64,000 bases of DNA from Bacteroidia bacterium. GTDB lineage: Bacteria > Bacteroidota > Bacteroidia > M30B66. The notes beneath the pieces were generated by a model. The model saw only the letters and a program-made list of their open reading frames with translations, did no database searches and was not told where the DNA came from. Of this stretch, positions 20,479 through 37,288 are shown in pieces. Location of the stretch: contig JAIBAI010000008.1 of NCBI GenBank assembly GCA_019695235.1, positions 2,607-66,606 of the forward strand. Direction: 5' to 3'. Numbering within the stretch: the first letter of the stretch is position 1; every line of letters starts with the position of its first letter. The translations under genes were made by a program, and so were the position numbers.

Positions 20479-20604
20479 CTATTTTTGGGCATAATGTTCG
20501 CTAAGCAGGATGTTGTTAGCACCAGCAATCTGAACAGCTGTCATCAATCAATACTTGAGAATAAAAAGATATTGCAAATTTCATTATTACATTCAAAAAA
20601 ACGC

Positions 20605-21822
20605 ATGAAAGCGCTACAAACAATAACAATGGCATTATTTATCACGGTATTACTATCTTCATGTAAAAAAGAAGATGATGTTGTCCCTAATCATGATAAT
20701 CCAAATAATATAACACTACTCAATACGAGTCAATGGACAGTCGTTGCGAGCCATATTCAAAAGAAACAACAGGGCAATCTGGGCGGGCGTTTCGGTACTT
20801 CTGCGTTCAGTTTACAAAAGCAGGATGAGTTGCGTTGGTATCTATACTTTAGTCACATGACAGGCATTCAGGACCCGATAGAGATTGTTGTAAACAACCA
20901 AAATGCTGTAACTGTAACTAAGCCACCAGGAAATATGGCTTCAGATTTCAGAGACATAAAAACCATTTATGGAGCCGACACGTGGGAAACCCGCATATCT
21001 TCTACATCTTCCAATAATTCCATCAATATCAATTCGTATAAAAATGGGCAATATACAGACATTGGTTATTCAAACTTTACTATGCATAAATTACAAGCAT
21101 CCGAAGATGGACTTTTGACTTCTAAAGAGTTCTATGGTGGCAACAATAGCGTTTCCCATTATCATTATGGTAGCGGGCAGTGGAAAGATAATGTGTTTTG
21201 GGCTACCCAATTTGTATCAACCCGTTACAATGGTAAAACCTATGTTGCCACTTTACTAAATGACGGAACAACGGGTACTCAAGGAACCTTTACAGTATTT
21301 GAAGAATCTAACACTCCTGGCCCCTCCAATGTTTATGAGATGACCAATAAGAATGAAGTGATAATTCCAAATGCAGGATATATTATGCACTCAACTCGCC
21401 ATAATGAAAATCTTTTTGTTGCTATTAATGCTCAGTGGCAAAATAAATATGTGGTGTATAAAATCAATCTAAATAACTATTATGTACAAAAAGTAATGGA
21501 AGAAACGAAAGTAGAAAATTATGAGAATCCCGAATTTATTATAAAAAACCTTGCTTCATTAGCGGAGATAGACCCACAAGGAAATTTATATATGGTAGCC
21601 AATCGCGTGGAAAATATGGATTCACATTACAGCATCAGGAAATACAAAACTACCGGTGGCAGCGAAGTAATACTAAAAGAAGAAGGCCTTAAAAAGCTCA
21701 CACGAATTGATGCTGTTTATTTTTTCAATAATAAATTACATGCTGCAATTATTTACAGAGAAGAATTGGCCGGTAATAACGGAATGAACAATTACCACAT
21801 GCAAATAATTTGTCAAAAATAA
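20605..21822 (+). CDS. Hypothetical lipoprotein, the first gene of the AT-rich region
   Basis: Lipoprotein signal MKALQTITMALFITVLLSSC. AT-rich coding sequence with no recognisable catalytic motif. Confidence 0.5.
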   Translation: MKALQTITMALFITVLLSSCKKEDDVVPNHDNPNNITLLNTSQWTVVASHIQKKQQGNLGGRFGTSAFSLQKQDELRWYLYFSHMTGIQDPIEIVVNNQNAVTVTKPPGNMASDFRDIKTIYGADTWETRISSTSSNNSININSYKNGQYTDIGYSNFTMHKLQASEDGLLTSKEFYGGNNSVSHYHYGSGQWKDNVFWATQFVSTRYNGKTYVATLLNDGTTGTQGTFTVFEESNTPGPSNVYEMTNKNEVIIPNAGYIMHSTRHNENLFVAINAQWQNKYVVYKINLNNYYVQKVMEETKVENYENPEFIIKNLASLAEIDPQGNLYMVANRVENMDSHYSIRKYKTTGGSEVILKEEGLKKLTRIDAVYFFNNKLHAAIIYREELAGNNGMNNYHMQIICQK

Positions 21823-21864
21823 TTTTGAAGCAAAATTTAACTCACTCTTTAGTAGCATCAATCA

Positions 21865-22908
21865 ATGAAGAATTTATTAGGATACATACTACAGCTTTTG
21901 CTTTTATTAAATGTAACCGTTAGCAAAGCTCAAAGTACCAATTGGTATTATGACCAACAAACCCGCTATGGCACTTTTCGCCATTACTCTAACGGTGGTG
22001 CCAAACTTATAACTACATCCAGGGGTGGGCGTGATTATGCAGGAGAAATGGCAGCATCCTATCAGGAACTGGTACAGATGAAGGAAGAGCGGGAAAGGCA
22101 ACGGATGATTGAAATTGAGCGCATGAGAAGGGAAAGCTTGCAGCAAGGTAGCAGCGGTTCAACAAGTGCTGTTCAAAAAAACTATGGTCCCACGCCTGCA
22201 GACTTAGCCCGGCAAGAGCAGCAAGAAAAAGATCGTTTTTACAAGCAGTATGAAGAGCTTTTGCACAACGCAAATGGTCTGTCTAACCAGGCACTTATTC
22301 TTTCTGAAATGTACAAACTGCGACCTAATGATACTGTTGCGCTGCGACTGTTCGGCATATATGCAAAACTGGGGAGAGAAGAAGATATGGATAGGTTGAA
22401 TAAATCATTTTCAGCCTCCTTTATAGCTGAAAATCATGATATTATTTGGTCAGGATGGGGACACAAAAGCTATATAGCCGGCACTTACAAATTAGTATTA
22501 ATGTACTTGGCGAAAATAAATGAACCTGACCTGAATAGTTTTGCACAAACGCTTTGCAGCCACCTGAGGTTGCACAATTGGAATGAGCTACCAGTATTGC
22601 TTGAAAAATACAGCAGTCGCTTTCCGGAGCTTTTATCGGTTTCCCCGAAACTTACTTCTGCTTTTCGTTACTTGAGTGCCCGGCAAATTGGAACAACAGA
22701 AGCAAAAGCAACTGCCGCTGAACTGCATCAGTTTGCCGTGACCCGGCGTGAAAACCGTATAATGGATTTTGTCAATATTGTTGTTCTTGATGCCGCGGTA
22801 AGTCTTGATCCGGAAAACAGCATCTACCGTGAAGAACGATTTAATTCAAATTCTATTCTCCAACTCAAACCTGCGATGCAGGAGGATTACGATTTTTTCA
22901 GCAGATAG
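21865..22908 (+). CDS. Hypothetical secreted protein with a coiled-coil segment
   Basis: Signal peptide MKNLLGYILQLLLLLNVTVSKAQS. Charged coiled coil EERERQRMIEIERMRRESLQQ. Confidence 0.45.
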   Translation: MKNLLGYILQLLLLLNVTVSKAQSTNWYYDQQTRYGTFRHYSNGGAKLITTSRGGRDYAGEMAASYQELVQMKEERERQRMIEIERMRRESLQQGSSGSTSAVQKNYGPTPADLARQEQQEKDRFYKQYEELLHNANGLSNQALILSEMYKLRPNDTVALRLFGIYAKLGREEDMDRLNKSFSASFIAENHDIIWSGWGHKSYIAGTYKLVLMYLAKINEPDLNSFAQTLCSHLRLHNWNELPVLLEKYSSRFPELLSVSPKLTSAFRYLSARQIGTTEAKATAAELHQFAVTRRENRIMDFVNIVVLDAAVSLDPENSIYREERFNSNSILQLKPAMQEDYDFFSR

Positions 22909-22918
22909 AAACCCCATC

Positions 22919-23881
22919 ATGAAATATATTTTCTTTTGTTTGTGTGCAATAGGCACTTTGCTGCCACTTCACAGTACTGCGCAATATTATGTAGGATGGA
23001 ATCGTGTTTTCCCTGACCGTGCAGGTAAAGTGATTGCTTTTAAGGCAGTTTATTCGGGCGCTTCCGACACGATTTACTTTGTAGATGTTGCTACCGGCAC
23101 TATTACAGACAGGGTGGCCGACGGGAGTTTTGGCTTAGAGTTTAAAATGTTGAAGGCTAAAGTATTGAACCGTGAGAAGGAGATGAATAAAGCACTTGTT
23201 GCGTTTCATACTTTGTCTCATTTTGAAAGGGACAAGGGAAATATGGAAGAATACATTGTGCGTTGGAAAAATGATTCAACAATTGCCAGCGCATTTTTGC
23301 CTAAAGTAGAAGTGCACAGTTATGAACCAAGAGTCTTTTATAAACCAGACAAACCCCGAAAGGTGCTGCTGGGGGTACGGCTTAACGGCGTAGCAATGCT
23401 TTACGACATGCTGGATACAACCAAAAATGGAGCAGCTAAGCTGCTTTACAGTAAAGACATAAATAAGGCCGACTACGAGGACTGGGAACGTGGGTACTTC
23501 CAGCAGGCTGTTATTTCGCCCAGCGGGAACCACGTTTTCACAATGCCTGACGGCACAATGATAGACATTGTAAAAGGTAAGAAAATATGGGATTTCAACT
23601 ATAAGAAAACAGGCTCATCTGATGTGGTTTTTAGCGAAGACGGCACGCGCATCGCCATTGAACATCAAGACAAATCAGTATCGGTTTTCAACGTAAAGAA
23701 AGGCAAGAGGCTGTATAAGATTCCTGCTCCACCAACGTTCCCGGGTGAGTTGGAAGTTGACCATTTGCTGCCACTCCCCGATATGCAGAGCTGCTTTGTT
23801 TTCTACATGGATTATAAGAATAGTGTAGCGAAAGTATTGTTGTTGAATTCTGATGGAAACTATAAAGAGATTAAGTTTTAA
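22919..23881 (+). CDS. Hypothetical secreted protein
   Basis: Signal peptide MKYIFFCLCAIGTLLPLHSTAQ. Beta-rich sequence. Confidence 0.45.
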   Translation: MKYIFFCLCAIGTLLPLHSTAQYYVGWNRVFPDRAGKVIAFKAVYSGASDTIYFVDVATGTITDRVADGSFGLEFKMLKAKVLNREKEMNKALVAFHTLSHFERDKGNMEEYIVRWKNDSTIASAFLPKVEVHSYEPRVFYKPDKPRKVLLGVRLNGVAMLYDMLDTTKNGAAKLLYSKDINKADYEDWERGYFQQAVISPSGNHVFTMPDGTMIDIVKGKKIWDFNYKKTGSSDVVFSEDGTRIAIEHQDKSVSVFNVKKGKRLYKIPAPPTFPGELEVDHLLPLPDMQSCFVFYMDYKNSVAKVLLLNSDGNYKEIKF

Positions 23882-23939: not shown

Positions 23940-24182
23940 ATGCCAAAATTAAAACGCTGGCTTTATGCAATTGCGATCGCAATTTTTTCCACTTTACTGG
24001 TGGCTTATGCTTATGATATTGAAAAAGAAATACCCATCGAACCTTCGAGCACACAGGCAGGACGACAAGACATACTGATTACAGTAGCTGATGCATTAGG
24101 GCTTACAGGTAGTATTTTAGTGGCGTTGGTGGCTACTGGTATCGGACTGTATTATGCTATTCGCCAACACTTCACAAGATAA
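23940..24182 (+). CDS. Small 2-TM membrane protein
   Basis: 80 aa with two hydrophobic helices. Confidence 0.35.
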   Translation: MPKLKRWLYAIAIAIFSTLLVAYAYDIEKEIPIEPSSTQAGRQDILITVADALGLTGSILVALVATGIGLYYAIRQHFTR

Positions 24183-24657
24183 TATTTTAATGAAATTGAT
24201 TGGCACAATACTCATCTTCATCGGAATAATTTTCGGTGTGTTCGGCGCAAGGTCGTATTGGCACAATTATTTGTATAATCAGGCCAGTACTACAGTAAAA
24301 GCTACGGTGAAATCCGCTGAAATAAAACCCATGTCAGGAAAAGCGGTAGGCAGTATCCGGATTGTTCTTAGTTATAAGCGTGATGGCCTTACAGACAGTT
24401 TAGAATACAATTTTTCAGAGGCATATTCAAATAAAGAACCCCTGCCCAGCGAGGAAGAATTGAAATCCGCAACTTATTATGTGCGCTATGTACCAAAGGA
24501 AAAAACAAATAAAAACATACCCGATTGGGTTATGGTAAGCAAAAAAGGTGAATTTGAAGAATTTTACGGCATATCTACGTTTACACAAATGTTCACGTTT
24601 ATTTTGCTGGGAATTATGGTAAGGATGTTCGCACGAAAAAATCAGGCGACGTTATGA
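24154..24657 (+). CDS. Membrane protein (DUF3592-like; N- and C-terminal TM)
   Basis: TM near the N-terminus (LIGTILIFIGIIFGVF) and near the C-terminus (MFTFILLGIMV). Alternative ATG at 24190. Confidence 0.4.
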   Translation: MLFANTSQDNILMKLIGTILIFIGIIFGVFGARSYWHNYLYNQASTTVKATVKSAEIKPMSGKAVGSIRIVLSYKRDGLTDSLEYNFSEAYSNKEPLPSEEELKSATYYVRYVPKEKTNKNIPDWVMVSKKGEFEEFYGISTFTQMFTFILLGIMVRMFARKNQATL

Positions 24658-25031
24658 CAAAACTTTTCTTTTTAATAATTACGCTCCTTGTGACAAAAAA
24701 CATTGTCTGTCAGTCTGACAACAAGCTTCTTATTGGTGAGTTGACAATAAGCCAAACGACAATCGAAAGGGCAAAAGTTGGTGACACTCTGGCATTTATA
24801 TTCACTAAGAAAAAATTTGTTGGTAGTATTAAAATTCACTCCGACAGTTCAATTTACGCTTGGGCAACCTGTACTTTAGGGCAAAAAGGGTATTTTTGGT
24901 GTAAAATTGGAACGTGGGATAGAAAAAAATTTGTTATCTTAAATTTACATTGCAAGACTATCATTCTAAAAAACATAACAACAGACATTGGATTAGGGCA
25001 ACAAAAGTTAATAATTCAAGACATCTGGTAA
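24654..25031 (+). CDS. Hypothetical small secreted protein
   Basis: N-terminal hydrophobic signal MTKLFFLIITLLVTKNIVCQS. Confidence 0.35.
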   Translation: MTKLFFLIITLLVTKNIVCQSDNKLLIGELTISQTTIERAKVGDTLAFIFTKKKFVGSIKIHSDSSIYAWATCTLGQKGYFWCKIGTWDRKKFVILNLHCKTIILKNITTDIGLGQQKLIIQDIW

Positions 25032-25120: not shown

Positions 25121-25669
25121 ATAATAAAAATTTGTGTCTTTAATATAGACATTATTGCACAAAAGCAAGCCATTGACATTCCGGGTAGAAGAACGATATT
25201 TGACTTTGCCTGCAATATCGAAAGCAAACTTTTTGGATTTGATGTAAAAACCAAAGATTTAGATTCAACAAGCTATTCAGATGGTGGTGTCTGTGCCGTT
25301 GGTAATCTTCTTAAATTTCTTGCAAATGATAAAGGAGTCTTTATGATTGTAGAGTTTGGGCACGACAAATCAACAACAAAGAATAGTAGCCGGGATATTG
25401 AATACATTCGAGTAGCGCCATTTCATTGCCTGCCAGAGAACACATATCGAATAGAGAATTTGGGAACCGGGCAAGTAAGGCTAAACTACACCGTAAATCA
25501 GGTTTGGGATGAGATTGACTGGAACAGGTCTTACAGTGACTTTTTTGATATTTTTTGCCAACTTTCAATAACCCATTACAAGAGAGTAAAAGCAGACGCA
25601 GAAAAGCGCATTAAATCAATAGAACAGTTCAAAGATGGCGGATATGAAAACTTTCGATTTATCAGATAA
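25121..25669 (+). pseudogene. Start-less ORF remnant adjacent to the methyltransferase, possibly a decayed partner such as a restriction endonuclease
   Basis: Open frame from the stop at 25118 to 25669 with protein-like composition. The first ATG is at 25343 (108-aa ORF); no ATG/GTG/TTG upstream in frame. The frame overlaps the MTase start. Confidence 0.3.
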
Positions 25670-27179
25670 GGCCTTACAAATAGGTAATGTGTTCACCCCT
25701 CTTAAATGGGGTGAATTTGCTATTGCAAAATTTGACCTTTTTTCAAAATGGATCAACGGGGCTTCAATATTTGATCCGACAATGGGGGAAGGCAACTTAC
25801 TTGAAGCCTTGATAACTTATGGGGTATCGCAAGGATTTACCATCAATGAACTACCGACCCATAGCCTTTTTGGCAATGAATTAAATACGGTTTATTTCAA
25901 TAGAACCATAAATAAGTTTTCTGAGAAATATGGCTTGGATATGTCTCTAAACCTTACGAATGAAGATTTTCTTAGGCTTGCGTCAGCGAAATACGATATT
26001 GTTTTTGGCAATCCCCCTTGGCAAAACTTTGTTGATTTGCCCGAGAGCTATAAAGAACAAATAAAAAGCTATTTCTTCAAATTTGACTTAATTGGCAACA
26101 GTCAAAGCCTTTTATTAGGAGGGAGTAGAATTGATATAGCTGCCCTTATCATTCAGATTGCCATTAAAGATTTTATAAAACAAGATGGTGAAGCAATAAT
26201 ATTTATGCCGCTTTCACTATTCTTAAATGATGGGGCAAATAGAAATTTCAGAACATATAGCATCGGTACAGCAAATTATCGTGTTAATTCCATTTTCGAC
26301 TTCAATGATGAAGATGTTTTCGGTGGGATTGCAACACGTTATGGGTTGACACATTTCATTAGAGACAAAAAATCTCTATTCCCAATTCCATATTTCCACA
26401 ATGAAAATGGAAGTTGGCACGAGTTCCATGCTAAACCAATGTTTCATGAAACCGATCCATTGAACATCGTCCCAAAGAATGAAATTGGGGATTTTGAAGA
26501 CATAAAACCCGTTGTAATCAAAAAGGAATCAAGTCCAAGACAAGGAATTAATACGTGTGGCGCAAATGATGTTTATTTCTTTGATAAGCTTAGTGAAGTT
26601 AATGAAAACCTAGTGCGTGTTTCCAATAAGAGTAAAGTCAGCATCGAGCTCCCTAAGCAATTCATCTTTCCTCTTATTACAGCAAAAGAGTTTAGAACGG
26701 GAATAAAATCCCCTTCGAAATGGGTTCTCTTGCCCTACAACACCAATGGCAAACCACTAGAATGGAAGCAGATTCAAATGTTTCCTGAACTTAATCAATA
26801 CCTTGAATCAAACAAAGAGATATTGCAAAGAAGAAAAGGGGTAATGTTAAATGCTTTGCTTAATAGGGGGCATTGGTGGGCAATGTTGGGAGTTGGTGAA
26901 TATAACTTCTTCCCATACAAAGTAGTATGGGAAGCATACGGCAAAACTAGTTTTAATCCAACAGTGTTTGAAGGGTATTGGCAAGCGAACCAGTCACTAC
27001 AAGCATTTATACCAATTAAAACATTAACTGAAGCTCAAAAGGTTCAAGCTGAGTTGTCAAATAAACAAATAGAAAACTATCTACTGTCTTTAAAAATGGA
27101 AGGGACAATGAATTGGGCACAACCGGGCAAAATAAAAAGGATTATCAAATACGAAGAAGAAACACTGACCTTATTTTGA
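25635..27179 (+). CDS. N6-adenine-specific DNA methyltransferase, TaqI/Eco57I-like gamma class
   Basis: Motif I FDPTMGEGNLL. Motif IV IVFGNPPWQNF (NPPW). C-terminal TaqI_C-like RQGINTCGANDVYF. Confidence 0.75.
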   Translation: MADMKTFDLSDKALQIGNVFTPLKWGEFAIAKFDLFSKWINGASIFDPTMGEGNLLEALITYGVSQGFTINELPTHSLFGNELNTVYFNRTINKFSEKYGLDMSLNLTNEDFLRLASAKYDIVFGNPPWQNFVDLPESYKEQIKSYFFKFDLIGNSQSLLLGGSRIDIAALIIQIAIKDFIKQDGEAIIFMPLSLFLNDGANRNFRTYSIGTANYRVNSIFDFNDEDVFGGIATRYGLTHFIRDKKSLFPIPYFHNENGSWHEFHAKPMFHETDPLNIVPKNEIGDFEDIKPVVIKKESSPRQGINTCGANDVYFFDKLSEVNENLVRVSNKSKVSIELPKQFIFPLITAKEFRTGIKSPSKWVLLPYNTNGKPLEWKQIQMFPELNQYLESNKEILQRRKGVMLNALLNRGHWWAMLGVGEYNFFPYKVVWEAYGKTSFNPTVFEGYWQANQSLQAFIPIKTLTEAQKVQAELSNKQIENYLLSLKMEGTMNWAQPGKIKRIIKYEEETLTLF

Positions 27180-34594: not shown

Positions 34595-35482
34595 ATGGCC
34601 AGTCTGAAGGAAGTTAGAAACCGTATTACCTCTGTAAGCTCAACACAGCAGATTACAAATGCCATGAAAATGGTGTCTGCCGCTAAATTGCGCAGGGCAC
34701 AAGACGCCATTCTTCGGTTAAGGCCTTATGCTGAAAAATTGCAGGAGATTCTGGGCAACCTGAGCACCAGTGCCGAAAATGCTGAAAGTGGAGTATATAC
34801 TGCCCAAAGAGAACCTAAGAAAGTTCTGATGGTGGTTATATCTTCAAACAGAGGTCTTGCAGGGGCTTTCAACGCCAACGTAATGAAAGAAGCCCGGAAA
34901 ATAGTCAACACACGTTATGCCAGCCAATTGGCCGAAGGCAATGTGTCATGGATGTCAATTGGAAAGAAGTCGGGTGATATCATCACAAAAAGTCAGTTCA
35001 ATTTGCTAAGCAGCCACAATGAACTTTTTGATGGCTTAAGCTTTGAGAAGGTATCCCTGCTGGCCCAACGCATCATGGATGGCTTTGTTGCCAAGGAGTT
35101 TGACCGGGTCGAAATTGTGTATAACCGCTTTAAGAATGCAGCGGTACAAATACTTACTACTGAGCAATTCTTACCGGTTCCACCTCCTGTTGCATCAAGT
35201 GAAGGTACAAAATCACAAAGTTTCGACTATATCTTCGAACCAGACCAGCAAACGATTGTAGAAGAATTGATTCCCAAATCACTCAAAACACAATTGTACA
35301 AAGCAATTTTAGATTCTTTTGCTGCTGAACATGGTGCCCGTATGACTGCCATGAACAAAGCAACCGACAATGCCCGTGAGTTACTCAAAGAACTTCGTTT
35401 GACTTACAACAAAGCCCGTCAGGCATCTATTACTAACGAAATCCTCGAGATTGTTGGTGGCGCTGAAGCCTTAAACGGCTAA
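34595..35482 (+). CDS. atpG: ATP synthase subunit gamma
   Basis: MASLKEVRNRITSVSSTQQITNAMKMVSAAKLRRAQ N-terminus. C-terminus ...ITNEILEIVGGAEALNG. Confidence 0.9.
   Translation: MASLKEVRNRITSVSSTQQITNAMKMVSAAKLRRAQDAILRLRPYAEKLQEILGNLSTSAENAESGVYTAQREPKKVLMVVISSNRGLAGAFNANVMKEARKIVNTRYASQLAEGNVSWMSIGKKSGDIITKSQFNLLSSHNELFDGLSFEKVSLLAQRIMDGFVAKEFDRVEIVYNRFKNAAVQILTTEQFLPVPPPVASSEGTKSQSFDYIFEPDQQTIVEELIPKSLKTQLYKAILDSFAAEHGARMTAMNKATDNARELLKELRLTYNKARQASITNEILEIVGGAEALNG
35397..35480. repeat. Left copy of an 84-bp perfect direct repeat (the 3' end of atpG)
   Basis: gtttgacttacaacaaagcccgtcaggcatctattactaacgaaatcctcgagattgttggtggcgctgaagccttaaacggct is identical to 36124..36207. Confidence 0.85.
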
Positions 35483-35510
35483 GGTTCATACGTGATTGCA
35501 GAAAAAAGGT

Positions 35511-35864
35511 TTAAGGCTGTACCCGCCTGACAATTTCAAGACAGCCCTCTTTGCGGTTAGTGTCTGAAATAAAATCTCTGATATCTTGGAAATGGGCTAA
35601 TAATAAAGCTACAATGCTTTTAGTGCCAGTATTTCCGGTTCGCAACCAAATTATCTTAGGTGGGTAACCATATAGTGTCAAAAGGTCGAAGAAATCAGCA
35701 TCAAAAGTTACAATGATACATTGATTTTCTTTTGCAAATTGCCAAATTTGGCTATCAGAAGCAGCAGCAAGGTCAAAGTCTTTAACATGCTTTGCTTCCG
35801 GAAATTTATCTTTTATCTCCTGCAGAACTCTGAAAGAAATATTTTGATCAAGCAATAATTTCAC
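35511..35864 (-). CDS. DUF5615/PIN-like putative toxin
   Basis: 117 aa (MKLLLDQNISFRVLQEIKDKFPEAKHVKDF...). It forms the usual pair with the DUF433 gene and overlaps its stop. GTG start. Confidence 0.5.
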   Translation of the reverse strand: MKLLLDQNISFRVLQEIKDKFPEAKHVKDFDLAAASDSQIWQFAKENQCIIVTFDADFFDLLTLYGYPPKIIWLRTGNTGTKSIVALLLAHFQDIRDFISDTNRKEGCLEIVRRVQP

Positions 35865-36085
35865 AATGCAATTCTAAGCATGTGCTCCCGTTCAGCGGCA
35901 TAGGCCAAAACAGCCTGTATATCTTCAATGGTCAACTCAGGAAAATCTGAAACAATCTCATCACGAGTCATACCCGAAGCCAGCCACCCTAAAATGTCAT
36001 AAACCGTAATTCTCAGGCCACGTACACATGGCCTGCCAAAACGAACCTGAGGGTTAATGGTTATGATTTCTGTATAATGTTTCAT
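35861..36085 (-). CDS. DUF433 domain protein, putative antitoxin
   Basis: DUF433 signature ...RFGRPCVRGLRITVYDILGWLASGMTRDEIVSDFPELTIEDIQAVLAYA. ATG at 36085. Confidence 0.55.
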   Translation of the reverse strand: MKHYTEIITINPQVRFGRPCVRGLRITVYDILGWLASGMTRDEIVSDFPELTIEDIQAVLAYAAEREHMLRIAL

Positions 36086-36123
36086 GCAACTAAGATACAA
36101 AAATTTGCTGCGATTCGCAAGCT

Positions 36124-36207
36124 GTTTGACTTACAACAAAGCCCGTCAGGCATCTATTACTAACGAAATCCTCGAGATTGTTGGTGGCGCTGAAGCCTTA
36201 AACGGCT
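36124..36207. repeat. Right copy of the 84-bp direct repeat, a duplicated atpG 3' fragment
   Basis: Identical to 35397..35480 and followed by TGA rather than TAA. Confidence 0.85.
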
Positions 36208-36226
36208 GATTCTCTATCTTTGGAGA

Positions 36227-37288
36227 ATGAATGTTGATTTTATCCTGGCAGGAAGAGGTCTGGCGGGCTCGGTATTAGCTTTGCAGCTTTTACGAGCGGG
36301 CTACTCGGTGGTTTCGATTGACGACCCTTCGATTTCAAATTGTTCAAGAGTCTCGGCCGGAATGATCAACCCTTTGGGTTTTAGGAAGATTTCGCATTCA
36401 TGGCGCGCTTTAGAAGCACTGGAGATTGCACAAAAGTTTTATCAGCAACTCGAAGAATTTTCAGGAAGAAGGTTTTTTCACCAGACGGGGATGGGACGCA
36501 TCTTCGGCACAGAACACGAAGCCATACACTGGAACAGCTTTGCCTTACAGGATGAATTTTCAGCAGATCTTGGCCTGGCTGGCTCTTTTGAGCCCGGACC
36601 ACATGTAAATGCTCCGTTTGGCGCGGCAATGATTAAAACTGCCGCCTCTGTTGACATGCTTGCTTTTCTTGCTGCTGCACAGGAAGTTCTTGCTCCAAAC
36701 ACCCAACTGGTACAGGATAAGTTTGTTGCCGATGAAGTTGAATTTTCCCATAATGGTGTGATATACCGTGAGTTTACTGCACGTGGCCTGGTACTTTGTG
36801 AAGGTTGGAGAAACACAGAGAACAAATGGTTCGCAGATTTACCACTCCGTCCGGCGAAAGGGGAGATTTTGACCGTGAAAGCCGAAGGATTGCCAGACAT
36901 TCCCTTCAGCGGAGGTGTCTTTGTGTTGCCTGCCGGTAACAACGTATATAAAATTGGTTCAACCTACGAATGGGGGCAAAAGGATGAAATTCCCACCCCG
37001 CACCAAAGAGCTGACCTCGAGAAACGCCTGGCCCACCTGATACGCATACCATTTGAGGTAGTATCGCAGGAAGCCGGTATCCGCCCCACGGTAAGTGATC
37101 GCCGCCCTCTGGTTGGACGCCACCCACGCATACCGCAGCTGTATATCTTTAACGGACTCGGCACCCGTGGTACCATGCTCGCCCCAATGCTCGCAAGCCA
37201 AATGGTTGAATTTATGGGTAACAACACCCCCGTATCTTCCGAGTGTTCGATTGGCAGATTCAAGCAACACCATGAAACGGTGGGCTAA
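36227..37288 (+). CDS. FAD-dependent oxidoreductase (DAO family)
   Basis: N-terminal dinucleotide-binding motif DFILAGRGLAGSVLALQL. Confidence 0.7.
   Translation: MNVDFILAGRGLAGSVLALQLLRAGYSVVSIDDPSISNCSRVSAGMINPLGFRKISHSWRALEALEIAQKFYQQLEEFSGRRFFHQTGMGRIFGTEHEAIHWNSFALQDEFSADLGLAGSFEPGPHVNAPFGAAMIKTAASVDMLAFLAAAQEVLAPNTQLVQDKFVADEVEFSHNGVIYREFTARGLVLCEGWRNTENKWFADLPLRPAKGEILTVKAEGLPDIPFSGGVFVLPAGNNVYKIGSTYEWGQKDEIPTPHQRADLEKRLAHLIRIPFEVVSQEAGIRPTVSDRRPLVGRHPRIPQLYIFNGLGTRGTMLAPMLASQMVEFMGNNTPVSSECSIGRFKQHHETVG

Follow-up and report, generated by a model that had tools for sequence, protein, structure and literature searches.

How does a two-gene unit that carries no mobility functions come to lie between two chromosomal neighbors, framed by two identical copies of the end of a host gene? 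The question is raised by a 64,000-nt stretch of DNA from a Bacteroidia bacterium (lineage M30B66; GenBank assembly GCA_019695235.1, contig JAIBAI010000008.1, positions 2,607 to 66,606; referred to here as the window), in which a predicted DUF433–DUF5615 toxin–antitoxin (TA) pair sits between atpG, encoding the gamma subunit of ATP synthase, and a gene for an FAD-dependent oxidoreductase of the DAO family. The movement of chromosomal TA pairs is a long-standing loose end, as these pairs act like a component of the mobilome and usually come without mobility genes. The present locus is a clean and polarized case: related lineages keep the site empty, the gene that was hit is essential and highly conserved, and 84 nt of it are perfectly duplicated. 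In the reading that we favor, at a probability of roughly 60%, a self-contained TA unit was acquired horizontally and entered the atpG/DAO junction via recombinase-independent insertion with long target duplication.

An exact repeat search confirmed the central observation of an earlier note on this DNA, namely that the end of atpG is present twice, with different stop codons. The 84 nt at 35397–35480 (+) recur at 36124–36207 (+) with 84/84 positions identical; a match occurred in 0/100 shuffles, and the window holds only these two copies when up to 3 mismatches are tolerated. Copy 1 is the functional one, providing the final 28 codons of an intact atpG (34595–35482, +; 295 amino acids; full-length match to Pfam PF00231 (ATP-synt), E = 3.9e-99; atpBEFHAG syntenic in relatives). 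Its last base is the T of the present TAA stop codon (35480–35482), the AA of which was either supplied by the insert or is the product of a G-to-A change. Copy 2 is a non-functional relic that runs into the ancestral TGA (36207–36209) and an ancestral 17-nt spacer (36210–36226, +), which has the same length in the related lineage L096 and behind the second copy in lineage L098 (see below). The DAO gene, the ancestral downstream neighbor of atpG (36227–37288, +; 353 amino acids; Pfam PF01266, E = 1e-29), follows with its start 20 nt past the end of copy 2, as had been stated. Bracketed by the repeats is an insert of 643 nt (35481–36123, −; previously given as about 640 bp), which is missing from the orthologous junction of L096/L097 and L224. 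It had been called AT-rich and is so only mildly, with a GC content of 0.392 vs 0.437 for the window, at the 12th percentile of 643-nt windows; GC at third codon positions is 0.31 in the DUF5615 gene and 0.41–0.47 in its neighbors. Read on the minus strand, the insert consists of a promoter region (36123–36086), the DUF433 gene, the DUF5615 gene and a 28-nt tail (35510–35483), that is, one transcription unit plus tail and nothing more. The product thus has the structure A-R-X-R-B, in which R is host DNA and X an autonomous expression unit without recombination functions.

The cargo has the composition of a type II TA system, with adjacent, co-oriented small genes, the antitoxin first, and members of a DNA-binding antitoxin family and a PIN-like toxin family. 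The predicted antitoxin gene (DUF433, COG2442; 35861–36085, −; ATG start; Pfam PF04255, E = 9.4e-26) encodes 74 amino acids, the length also called in public annotations, and the predicted toxin gene (DUF5615, COG4634; 35511–35864, −; GTG start; Pfam PF18480, E = 2.6e-35) encodes 117. Both Pfam matches lie well above the curated cut-offs, and the DUF5615 protein retains all invariant columns of the family alignment. Antitoxin stop and toxin start overlap by 4 nt (GTGA) in a single minus-strand operon; the earlier description of the two genes as convergent holds for the operon relative to atpG and not for the genes between themselves. Among 2240 DUF5615 homologs found, the closest one beyond this species was 66% identical, and DUF433 lay directly upstream of DUF5615 in 79/80 homologous metagenomic loci. 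COG4634 proteins have been grouped with Mut7-C-like PIN-like nucleases as a ‘potential’ TA toxin in a study that also cites the DUF433 antitoxin VapB45 (PMC5499597), and the PIN-COG2442 pair VapBC10 of Synechocystis was shown to be a TA system (PMC3834315). The pair studied here shares with such VapBC-like systems the antitoxin-first operon, the overlapping genes, and the combination of a DNA-binding DUF433/COG2442 antitoxin with a PIN-like toxin, but its toxin belongs to the COG4634/DUF5615 (Mut7-C-like) group, for which no experimental test of any member was found in the literature searched. Toxicity of the DUF5615 protein and its neutralization by the DUF433 protein are predicted from these family assignments.

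The insert also appears to bring its own promoter. A motif search placed a putative Bacteroidota-type −7 box, TATCTTAG, at 36090–36097 (−), ending 4 nt before the DUF433 ATG within the 38 nt that separate copy 2 from this start codon, and a TTG lies 20 nt upstream of the box at the extreme edge of the insert. The motif TAnnTTnG was present at most 50 nt upstream of DUF433 in 58/73 homologous cassettes, mostly at −12, against a background of 7.7%. In the variant TAnnTT(T/A)G, the box stands at exactly −12 in most of the homologous cassettes (upstream regions of L111–L189). A scan for sigma-70 promoters and terminators, which is uninformative for Bacteroidota, gave nothing usable.

Exact-protein look-ups were made with AtpG, DUF5615 and DAO, drawing on ENA, JGI, the NCBI metagenome-assembled genome (MAG) GCA_020848765.1 and Logan. 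Contigs from at least 12 independent samples carried the arrangement, 99.8–100% identical across the region, and every contig long enough to span both copies had both of them perfect. These contigs come from different assemblers (MEGAHIT k141, SPAdes, JGI and the NCBI MAG), and k = 141 reads through the repeat. Logan contigs, built at k = 31, break 30 nt inside the repeat, as expected of a true genomic repeat; many of them (L103–L109) have their first base exactly 49 nt before DAO, at a point 30 nt into copy 2. In short-k assemblies, then, long repeats fragment contigs and conceal insertions of this kind.

The direction of the event could be read from relatives. An AtpG scan of species-representative genomes returned 80 loci, 0 of which had DAO or a TA pair downstream of atpG. 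DAO homologs, on the other hand, led to three related genus-level lineages (L096, L098 and L224) that keep the whole neighborhood of purD, atpBEFHAG, DAO, an acyltransferase (Acyl_transf_3), PSP1 and GldH. In L096/L097 (DAO 57% and AtpG 80% identical to the window proteins) the junction consists of the atpG TGA, 17 nt and the DAO ATG, and in L224 (DAO 44%, AtpG 77%) of the atpG TGA, 30 nt and the DAO ATG; the third lineage, L098/L099/L016 (DAO 49%, AtpG 81%), has a duplicated atpG end. The empty junctions of L096/L097 and L224 start with TGATTCC, and the window continues after copy 2 with TGATTCT, the shared junction being TGATTC(C/T)C. Since this junction matches the empty sites of L096 and L224, copy 2 together with the TGA and the spacer is the ancestral atpG terminus, and what is new is copy 1, the TAA and the cassette. 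The comparison with related genomes that the earlier note had proposed therefore found a single atpG end in both lineages and bore out the claim of a derived insertion at the atpG 3′ end. The repeat encodes the conserved AtpG C-terminus and matches the orthologous end at 70/84 positions in L096 and 67/84 in L098. Because the two window copies agree at 84/84 positions while relatives differ at 14–17 of 84, the event is far younger than the lineage splits, unless the copies were homogenized.

The exception among the three lineages deserves separate mention. In L098, L099 and L016, the last being the GTDB representative, atpG and DAO are 136 nt apart, and the gap holds a second, decayed atpG end (L098:1842–2003, L099:1664–1825 and L016:5850–6030). 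The decayed copy is 43 nt long, 81–86% identical, has an in-frame stop, includes the TGA plus 6 nt (TTGTAT) and sits 17 nt before the DAO ATG; a gene-less 76-nt spacer with a small hairpin parts it from the real end. This spacer showed no similarity to the window cassette, its ends or any homologous cassette, and a remnant of a cassette was accordingly rejected as its origin. On either side, this duplication ends at another position than the one in the window. As the four lineages are about equidistant, with L096 and L098 slightly nearer each other, tree parsimony does not separate two gains from one gain plus one loss. The different boundaries favor two gains, and the L098 duplication appears to be the older one, having arisen independently at this junction. 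The notion of atpG as an integration hotspot is thus weakly supported by one further lineage.

Repeat-flanked cassettes of this family are not confined to atpG. We collected 79 foreign metagenomic loci with DUF5615 relatives and searched 400 nt on each side for direct repeats, counting a repeat at a score of at least 24; 64 loci had enough flank. Flanking direct repeats (24–193 nt) were present in 14/64 cassettes, whereas only 3/189 positional controls (pseudo-cassettes elsewhere in the same loci) reached this score (Fisher p = 5e-7, or 2.5e-5 without the attC-type cases), and the score in cross-locus controls was never above 16 in 300 trials. Exact-protein look-ups added two more repeat-flanked loci (L190 and L200–L202), while L204 and three plasmid loci had no flanking repeats. 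The repeats fall into three classes. In the first (L145, L126 and L186) they resemble the attC sites of integrons, with a strong palindrome and the ends GCCTAAC…GTTAGGC. In the second, a host gene 3′ end or 3′ untranslated region is duplicated, at no fewer than six loci and with a different gene at each. The third class (L141, L116, L136, L152, L184 and L200–L202) comprises AT-rich, tandem, REP-like or unclassed repeats. Because attC-flanked and gene-end-repeat cassettes both occur, the DUF433–DUF5615 family travels in at least two ways, and, judging by the survey, between about one in six and one in ten of its cassettes would carry long target-derived repeats, besides the integron-borne fraction.

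The second class is the one to which the window locus compares. Its targets are a convergent gene in L115 (repeat of 193 nt, 87% identical), a convergent radical-SAM gene in L113 (37 nt, 36/37), a convergent ferredoxin gene in L190 (42 nt, 40/42) and a co-directional 573-amino-acid open reading frame (ORF) in L147 (36 nt, 33/36); in L162 a repeat of about 75 nt extends across the stop codon of a reverse-transcriptase gene, in L151 a 55-nt repeat is the terminator hairpin after a LOG-family gene, and L144, with a repeat of at least 105 nt, is a probable further case. Within this class the repeats (36–193 nt) are mutually unrelated, the cassette occurs in either orientation and no common sequence marks the cassette ends. 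In L190 the ferredoxin end is native, as judged from host relatives 96–87% identical in the neighboring U32 peptidase, and each copy has its own changes relative to that native end. As both copies descend from the native end, L190 fits target duplication and not a foreign, element-borne gene end.

Two of the surveyed loci showed additional variation. In L190 (1–2260, compared with L213, L215 and L216), two helix-turn-helix genes, a NUDIX gene and the TA cassette replace a convergent ‘Gate’ transporter gene downstream of ferredoxin; this replacement of the Gate gene in the P0152 host lineage (relatives 87–96% identical) is a larger rearrangement beside the cassette. The cassette with toxin P0138 (L200:1947–3393 compared with L201:514–1595 and L202) is flanked by AT-rich non-coding repeats of 142–239 nt with tandem TTGAAC units. 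Contigs with an identical P0138 toxin differ in the copy number of the downstream repeat, the gap being longer or shorter by about 330 nt, a sign that the repeats at this locus may still be recombining. The identical toxins P0152, P0138 and P0202 were considered as proof of recent mobility and rejected, each occurring in a single context.

No machinery that could have moved the window cassette was recovered. Neither the insert nor the Pfam-annotated 6 kb on either side contained an integrase, transposase or other mobility gene, no integrase or transposase was present among the scanned window ORFs of at least 220 amino acids, and the window held no tRNA or tmRNA. The ends of the insert have no terminal inverted repeats. 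Lacking both transposase and inverted repeats, the insert does not resemble a DNA transposon or insertion sequence, and its 84-nt duplication is, as had been noted before, far too long for a transposase target-site duplication (under ~15 bp for insertion sequences). Likewise, no tyrosine or serine recombinase of the kind that would mark a site-specific integrative element, or point to its integrase-less remnant in the manner of a cis-mobilizable element (CIME), was seen in the insert, the surrounding 6 kb or the large window ORFs, and none was noted beside the homologous repeat-flanked cassettes inspected, whose flanking repeats are unrelated host sequences of 36–193 nt rather than a shared att core. 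Relatives of the cassette were absent from IMG/VR viral contigs, and plasmid carriage was limited to six distant cyanobacterial hits, three of which were inspected and lacked flanking repeats. The protein collection held no further near-identical copy of the cassette, the next toxin homolog outside the species being the one at 66% identity. The search for other copies that had been recommended for the 84-mer and the TA pair was thus negative for the 84-mer in the window and for the pair in the collections searched. Of the proposed minimal mobile TA cassette, the minimal and self-contained nature stands, with homologs in many unrelated contexts; its mobility does not have the support of a second copy.

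Integrons carry homologous DUF433–DUF5615 cassettes with their own promoter between attC-like repeats, the loci L145 (975–1879), L126 (493–1518) and L186 (862–1691) being gene cassettes of the integron type. The window locus differs from these in that its repeat is atpG coding sequence without an attC fold, its tail has 28 nt and no integron integrase is present. Compared with shuffles, folding gave z = −0.14 for the repeat, +0.38 for the tail and values between −0.5 and +0.4 for the repeat plus both insert ends, vs −4.16 for the attC-type repeat of L145. An integron origin of the window cassette was rejected on this folding, and on the 28 unstructured nt after the toxin gene, which leave no room for an attC.

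The closest precedent is found among restriction–modification (RM) systems. Small RM units unaccompanied by another mobile element have been found between long, variable direct repeats that are single-copy at the related empty site, a situation described as ‘insertion with long target duplication’ (Nobusato et al., 2000, Gene 259:99; Furuta, Abe and Kobayashi, 2010, NAR 38:2428, PMC2853133). The class was delimited by a duplication of more than 30 bp, a short insert (<20 kb) that contains the whole unit, the lack of mobility genes, and the alignment of the repeat to one place only at the empty site (PMC2853133). In the window the duplication is 84 nt at 100% identity, the 643-nt insert holds a promoter box and two intact genes, no mobility gene is present and the repeat is atpG coding sequence with no tRNA or att site, and the repeat is single at the orthologous site of L096/L097 and L224, an inter-species comparison at 77–80% AtpG identity. 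RM cargo, which defined the original class, is replaced here by DUF433/DUF5615, and the locus extends the class to type II TA cargo. Common to both are a small addiction-type unit without mobility genes, long host-derived direct repeats of tens to hundreds of bp, and an insert with GC below that of the host. RM repeats also often overlap the 3′ end of a neighboring gene, for example by its last 15 bp and last 2 bp (PMC2853133, Fig. 3 legend). The differences lie in the cargo, a PIN-like and presumably RNA-cleaving TA system instead of a DNA-cutting enzyme, and in the empty site, which is intraspecific in the RM case. Mruk and Kobayashi (2013, PMC3874152) described this mode for RM systems only in their review. 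A two-gene ParDE-like TA system of Microcystis aeruginosa PCC 7806, located immediately downstream of a host gene, is also ‘fenced’ by identical long direct repeats (152 bp), which start 14 bp after the stop of that gene (Klemencic et al., 2021, PMC7935541). It belongs to another TA family, however, and its repeats are non-coding with an inverted repeat, with no empty site or target-duplication reading reported (PMC7935541).

If the window cassette was inserted in this manner, the target would have been opened at two points 84–87 nt apart, at the atpG stop codon and inside the gene, either by a widely staggered break or because a linear fragment was joined by its two ends to different sister chromatids at a replication fork. 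The insert would have entered by illegitimate joining at these points, and after fill-in or resolution the 84-nt segment would flank it on each side. Through the upstream copy atpG would remain intact, now with TAA, and the downstream copy would still precede the spacer and DAO, both unaltered. Where neighbors lie as close as atpG and DAO, 17 nt apart, only events that rebuild both of them would be expected to survive, which a long duplication would do automatically. The 84-nt repeats should in turn permit RecA-dependent precise excision. If the pair is addictive, its toxin being stable and its antitoxin labile, cells in which the repeats recombine and the cassette is lost would be penalized, and such insertions would be kept preferentially. 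Repeats around TA and RM units could persist and become enriched for this reason. Furuta et al. saw a possible common cause in double-strand breaks that the RM unit makes in DNA (PMC2853133); this would not apply here because the PIN-like toxin presumably cuts RNA. Our analysis argues that what RM and RNase-type TA units have in common would be retention through addiction, or a pathway of the host, rather than the cleavage of DNA by their genes.

Several observations weigh against this interpretation. No contig found carries an empty-site allele of this species, so that empty sites are inter-species only, and for L190 a clean second empty site was not obtained, only the polarization of the copies, as relatives at 96, 94 and 87% have a different downstream neighbor. 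The 84/84 identity of the copies would result equally from recent homologous (Campbell-type) integration or gene conversion. The second event at the same junction, in L098, hints at a site preference. Finally, a purely random staggered-break model does not predict the excess of repeat boundaries at stop codons described below, which might mean a more specific mechanism.

The earlier note had put forward site-specific integration or the residue of a larger element. Taken together, these would have an integrative element whose attP carried an atpG 3′ end recombine with atpG and later lose everything but its TA module, with attL and attR left behind as a CIME-like remnant without integrase. Phage 21 and e14 at icd, and ICESt1 and CIMEs at fda, target the 3′ end of a protein-coding gene and supply a replacement end. 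TA modules are common cargo of integrative elements in general, which speaks for such an origin. As in these elements, the direct repeat in the window copies a gene 3′ end up to the stop and the gene stays functional. The distal boundary of the repeat at the stop codon, the different stop of the functional copy (TAA vs the ancestral TGA) and the duplication of the same junction in a second lineage, compatible with a preferred att site, would also agree with it. However, elements of the icd/fda type encode or once encoded a tyrosine recombinase and have a fixed att core and a diverged replacement end, whereas the window lacks a recombinase, has identical copies and has cassette relatives at unrelated genes. 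An element-borne copy would have to come from the same species to match at 84/84 positions where relatives show 14–17 differences, and the insert would have to be trimmed exactly to one transcription unit with no integrase or element gene left in it or within 6 kb. Repeats of homologous cassettes derive from different host genes with different lengths and orientations, both L190 copies are native-derived, and the L098 duplication differs in its boundaries on both sides. With no integrase, att-like structure or tRNA to support the element-borne gene end, and no positive evidence for a larger element in an insert made up of promoter, two genes and a 28-nt tail, we consider this origin unlikely and did not retain either form of the claim.

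A second possibility is that a conspecific circle, consisting of the cassette and one 84-nt copy excised by repeat recombination, was taken up by transformation and integrated by a single RecA-dependent crossover in the atpG end. A crossover with such an R+X circle yields R-X-R with perfect repeats, and the presence of the insert in all sampled strains is in line with spread of this kind. Yet 84 bp is a short substrate for RecA-dependent integration, and the assemblies of this species contained neither the circle junction (…CGCAAGCT|GTTTGAC…AACGGCT|AAGGTTCAT…) nor an empty-site allele or polymorphism. A ‘virus-like’ cycle has been proposed by the Kobayashi group for repeat-flanked RM units (PMC2853133). 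Nevertheless, the route needs a prior event that made the first R-X-R, and it would account for spread within the species and not for the first origin; even in that limited role it seems improbable to us.

The position of the boundary relative to the stop codon raises a further alternative. As offset we took the distance, counted in the direction of the gene, from the last base of the target stop codon to the gene-distal boundary of the repeat. It was −2 in the window (or 0 with one TGA-to-TAA transition), −1 in L113 (or 0 with one TAA/TAG difference), 0 in L147 and L190, +6 in L098, about +10 in L115 and about +45 in L162. Four of these 7 gene-end duplications end at or within the target stop codon, more than expected under a uniform model but a post hoc observation in a small sample, and in two of the stop-codon cases the copies differ only by a stop-to-stop change (TGA/TAA and TAA/TAG). 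As selection requires, no boundary falls deep within the gene. An element that supplies the gene end would place the boundary at the stop codon, but the remaining evidence weighs against such an element. Breakpoints may instead be preferred where translation ends. Taken further, DUF433–DUF5615 cassettes, and perhaps addiction modules generally, would form a recombinase-less mobile class that inserts at gene 3′ ends with a breakpoint at the stop codon, the long variable duplications then permitting excision, amplification and homologous re-integration. The breakpoint could in that case be tied to the termination of translation, or to R-loops that form at the point beyond which ribosomes no longer cover the transcript. 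We regard this generalization as improbable; if true, the signature common to RM and TA units would reflect a shared insertion pathway and not DNA cleavage by the cargo. Two concrete leads open to testing are the breakpoint at the stop codon and the further event at the atpG/DAO junction.

A two-step origin, in which the atpG end was first duplicated locally and the TA cassette later inserted by chance between the copies, can appeal to the L098/L099/L016 junction, which shows that a duplicated atpG end with a 76-nt spacer and no cassette can exist there, and ‘chance insertion between repeated sequences’ is a recognized third class in Furuta et al. (2010, PMC2853133). It requires, however, two rare events within the same 100 bp, the perfect window copies leave little time since the duplication, nothing in the L098 spacer resembles the cassette or its ends, and the repeat–cassette–repeat arrangement recurs at many unrelated genes far above positional controls, which makes this origin very unlikely. 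Lastly, an assembly chimera in which merged strain variants gave rise to the repeat, suggested by the metagenomic source and the k = 31 breaks, was rejected with near certainty, since the same structure, including the new junction …GCAAGCT|GTTTGAC…, is common to the at least 12 independent assemblies, among them several made with k above the repeat length, and merging would not generate new junction sequence.

The insertion has also left traces that concern the annotation of the junction. The boundary between cassette and copy 2 creates a 41-amino-acid chimeric ORF (36084–36209, +) in which MQLRYKNLLRFASC is joined to the 27 C-terminal residues of AtpG. Gene callers could report this ORF although it is probably no gene, and neither it nor the 84-nt relic should be taken for one. 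The motif search found a −7-like box, TATCTTTG, at 36215–36222 (+) in the atpG–DAO spacer, outside the repeat. A TAnnTT(T/A)G box thus ends 4 nt ahead of the start codon in both the DUF433 gene (36090–36097, −) and the DAO gene, which suggests that the 5′ leaders of both genes are very short or missing. By manual reading, no canonical −33 box for DAO was seen within the repeat at the right distance, and the idea that the duplication preserved a DAO promoter is at best a weak speculation.

Two further features of the window were recorded. About 8 kb upstream of atpG lies a homolog of Eco57I-like RM methylases (25635–27179, +; Pfam PF07669, E = 2e-9), with small ORFs upstream of it (23940–25031) and unannotated ORFs without Pfam hit at 20485–23881; no flanking direct or inverted repeats were found around the methylase gene. 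At the left edge of the window, which it touches, a 300-nt direct repeat with 97% identity occupies positions 1–300 and 1428–1727. Its second copy is inside a 336-amino-acid ORF (1035–2045, −) that has no Pfam hit and a cysteine-rich C-terminus and is followed by a membrane-like ORF of 105 amino acids (705–1022). The arrangement looks like a tandem duplication of a two-gene unit, which possibly encodes a bacteriocin-like protein and its immunity protein.

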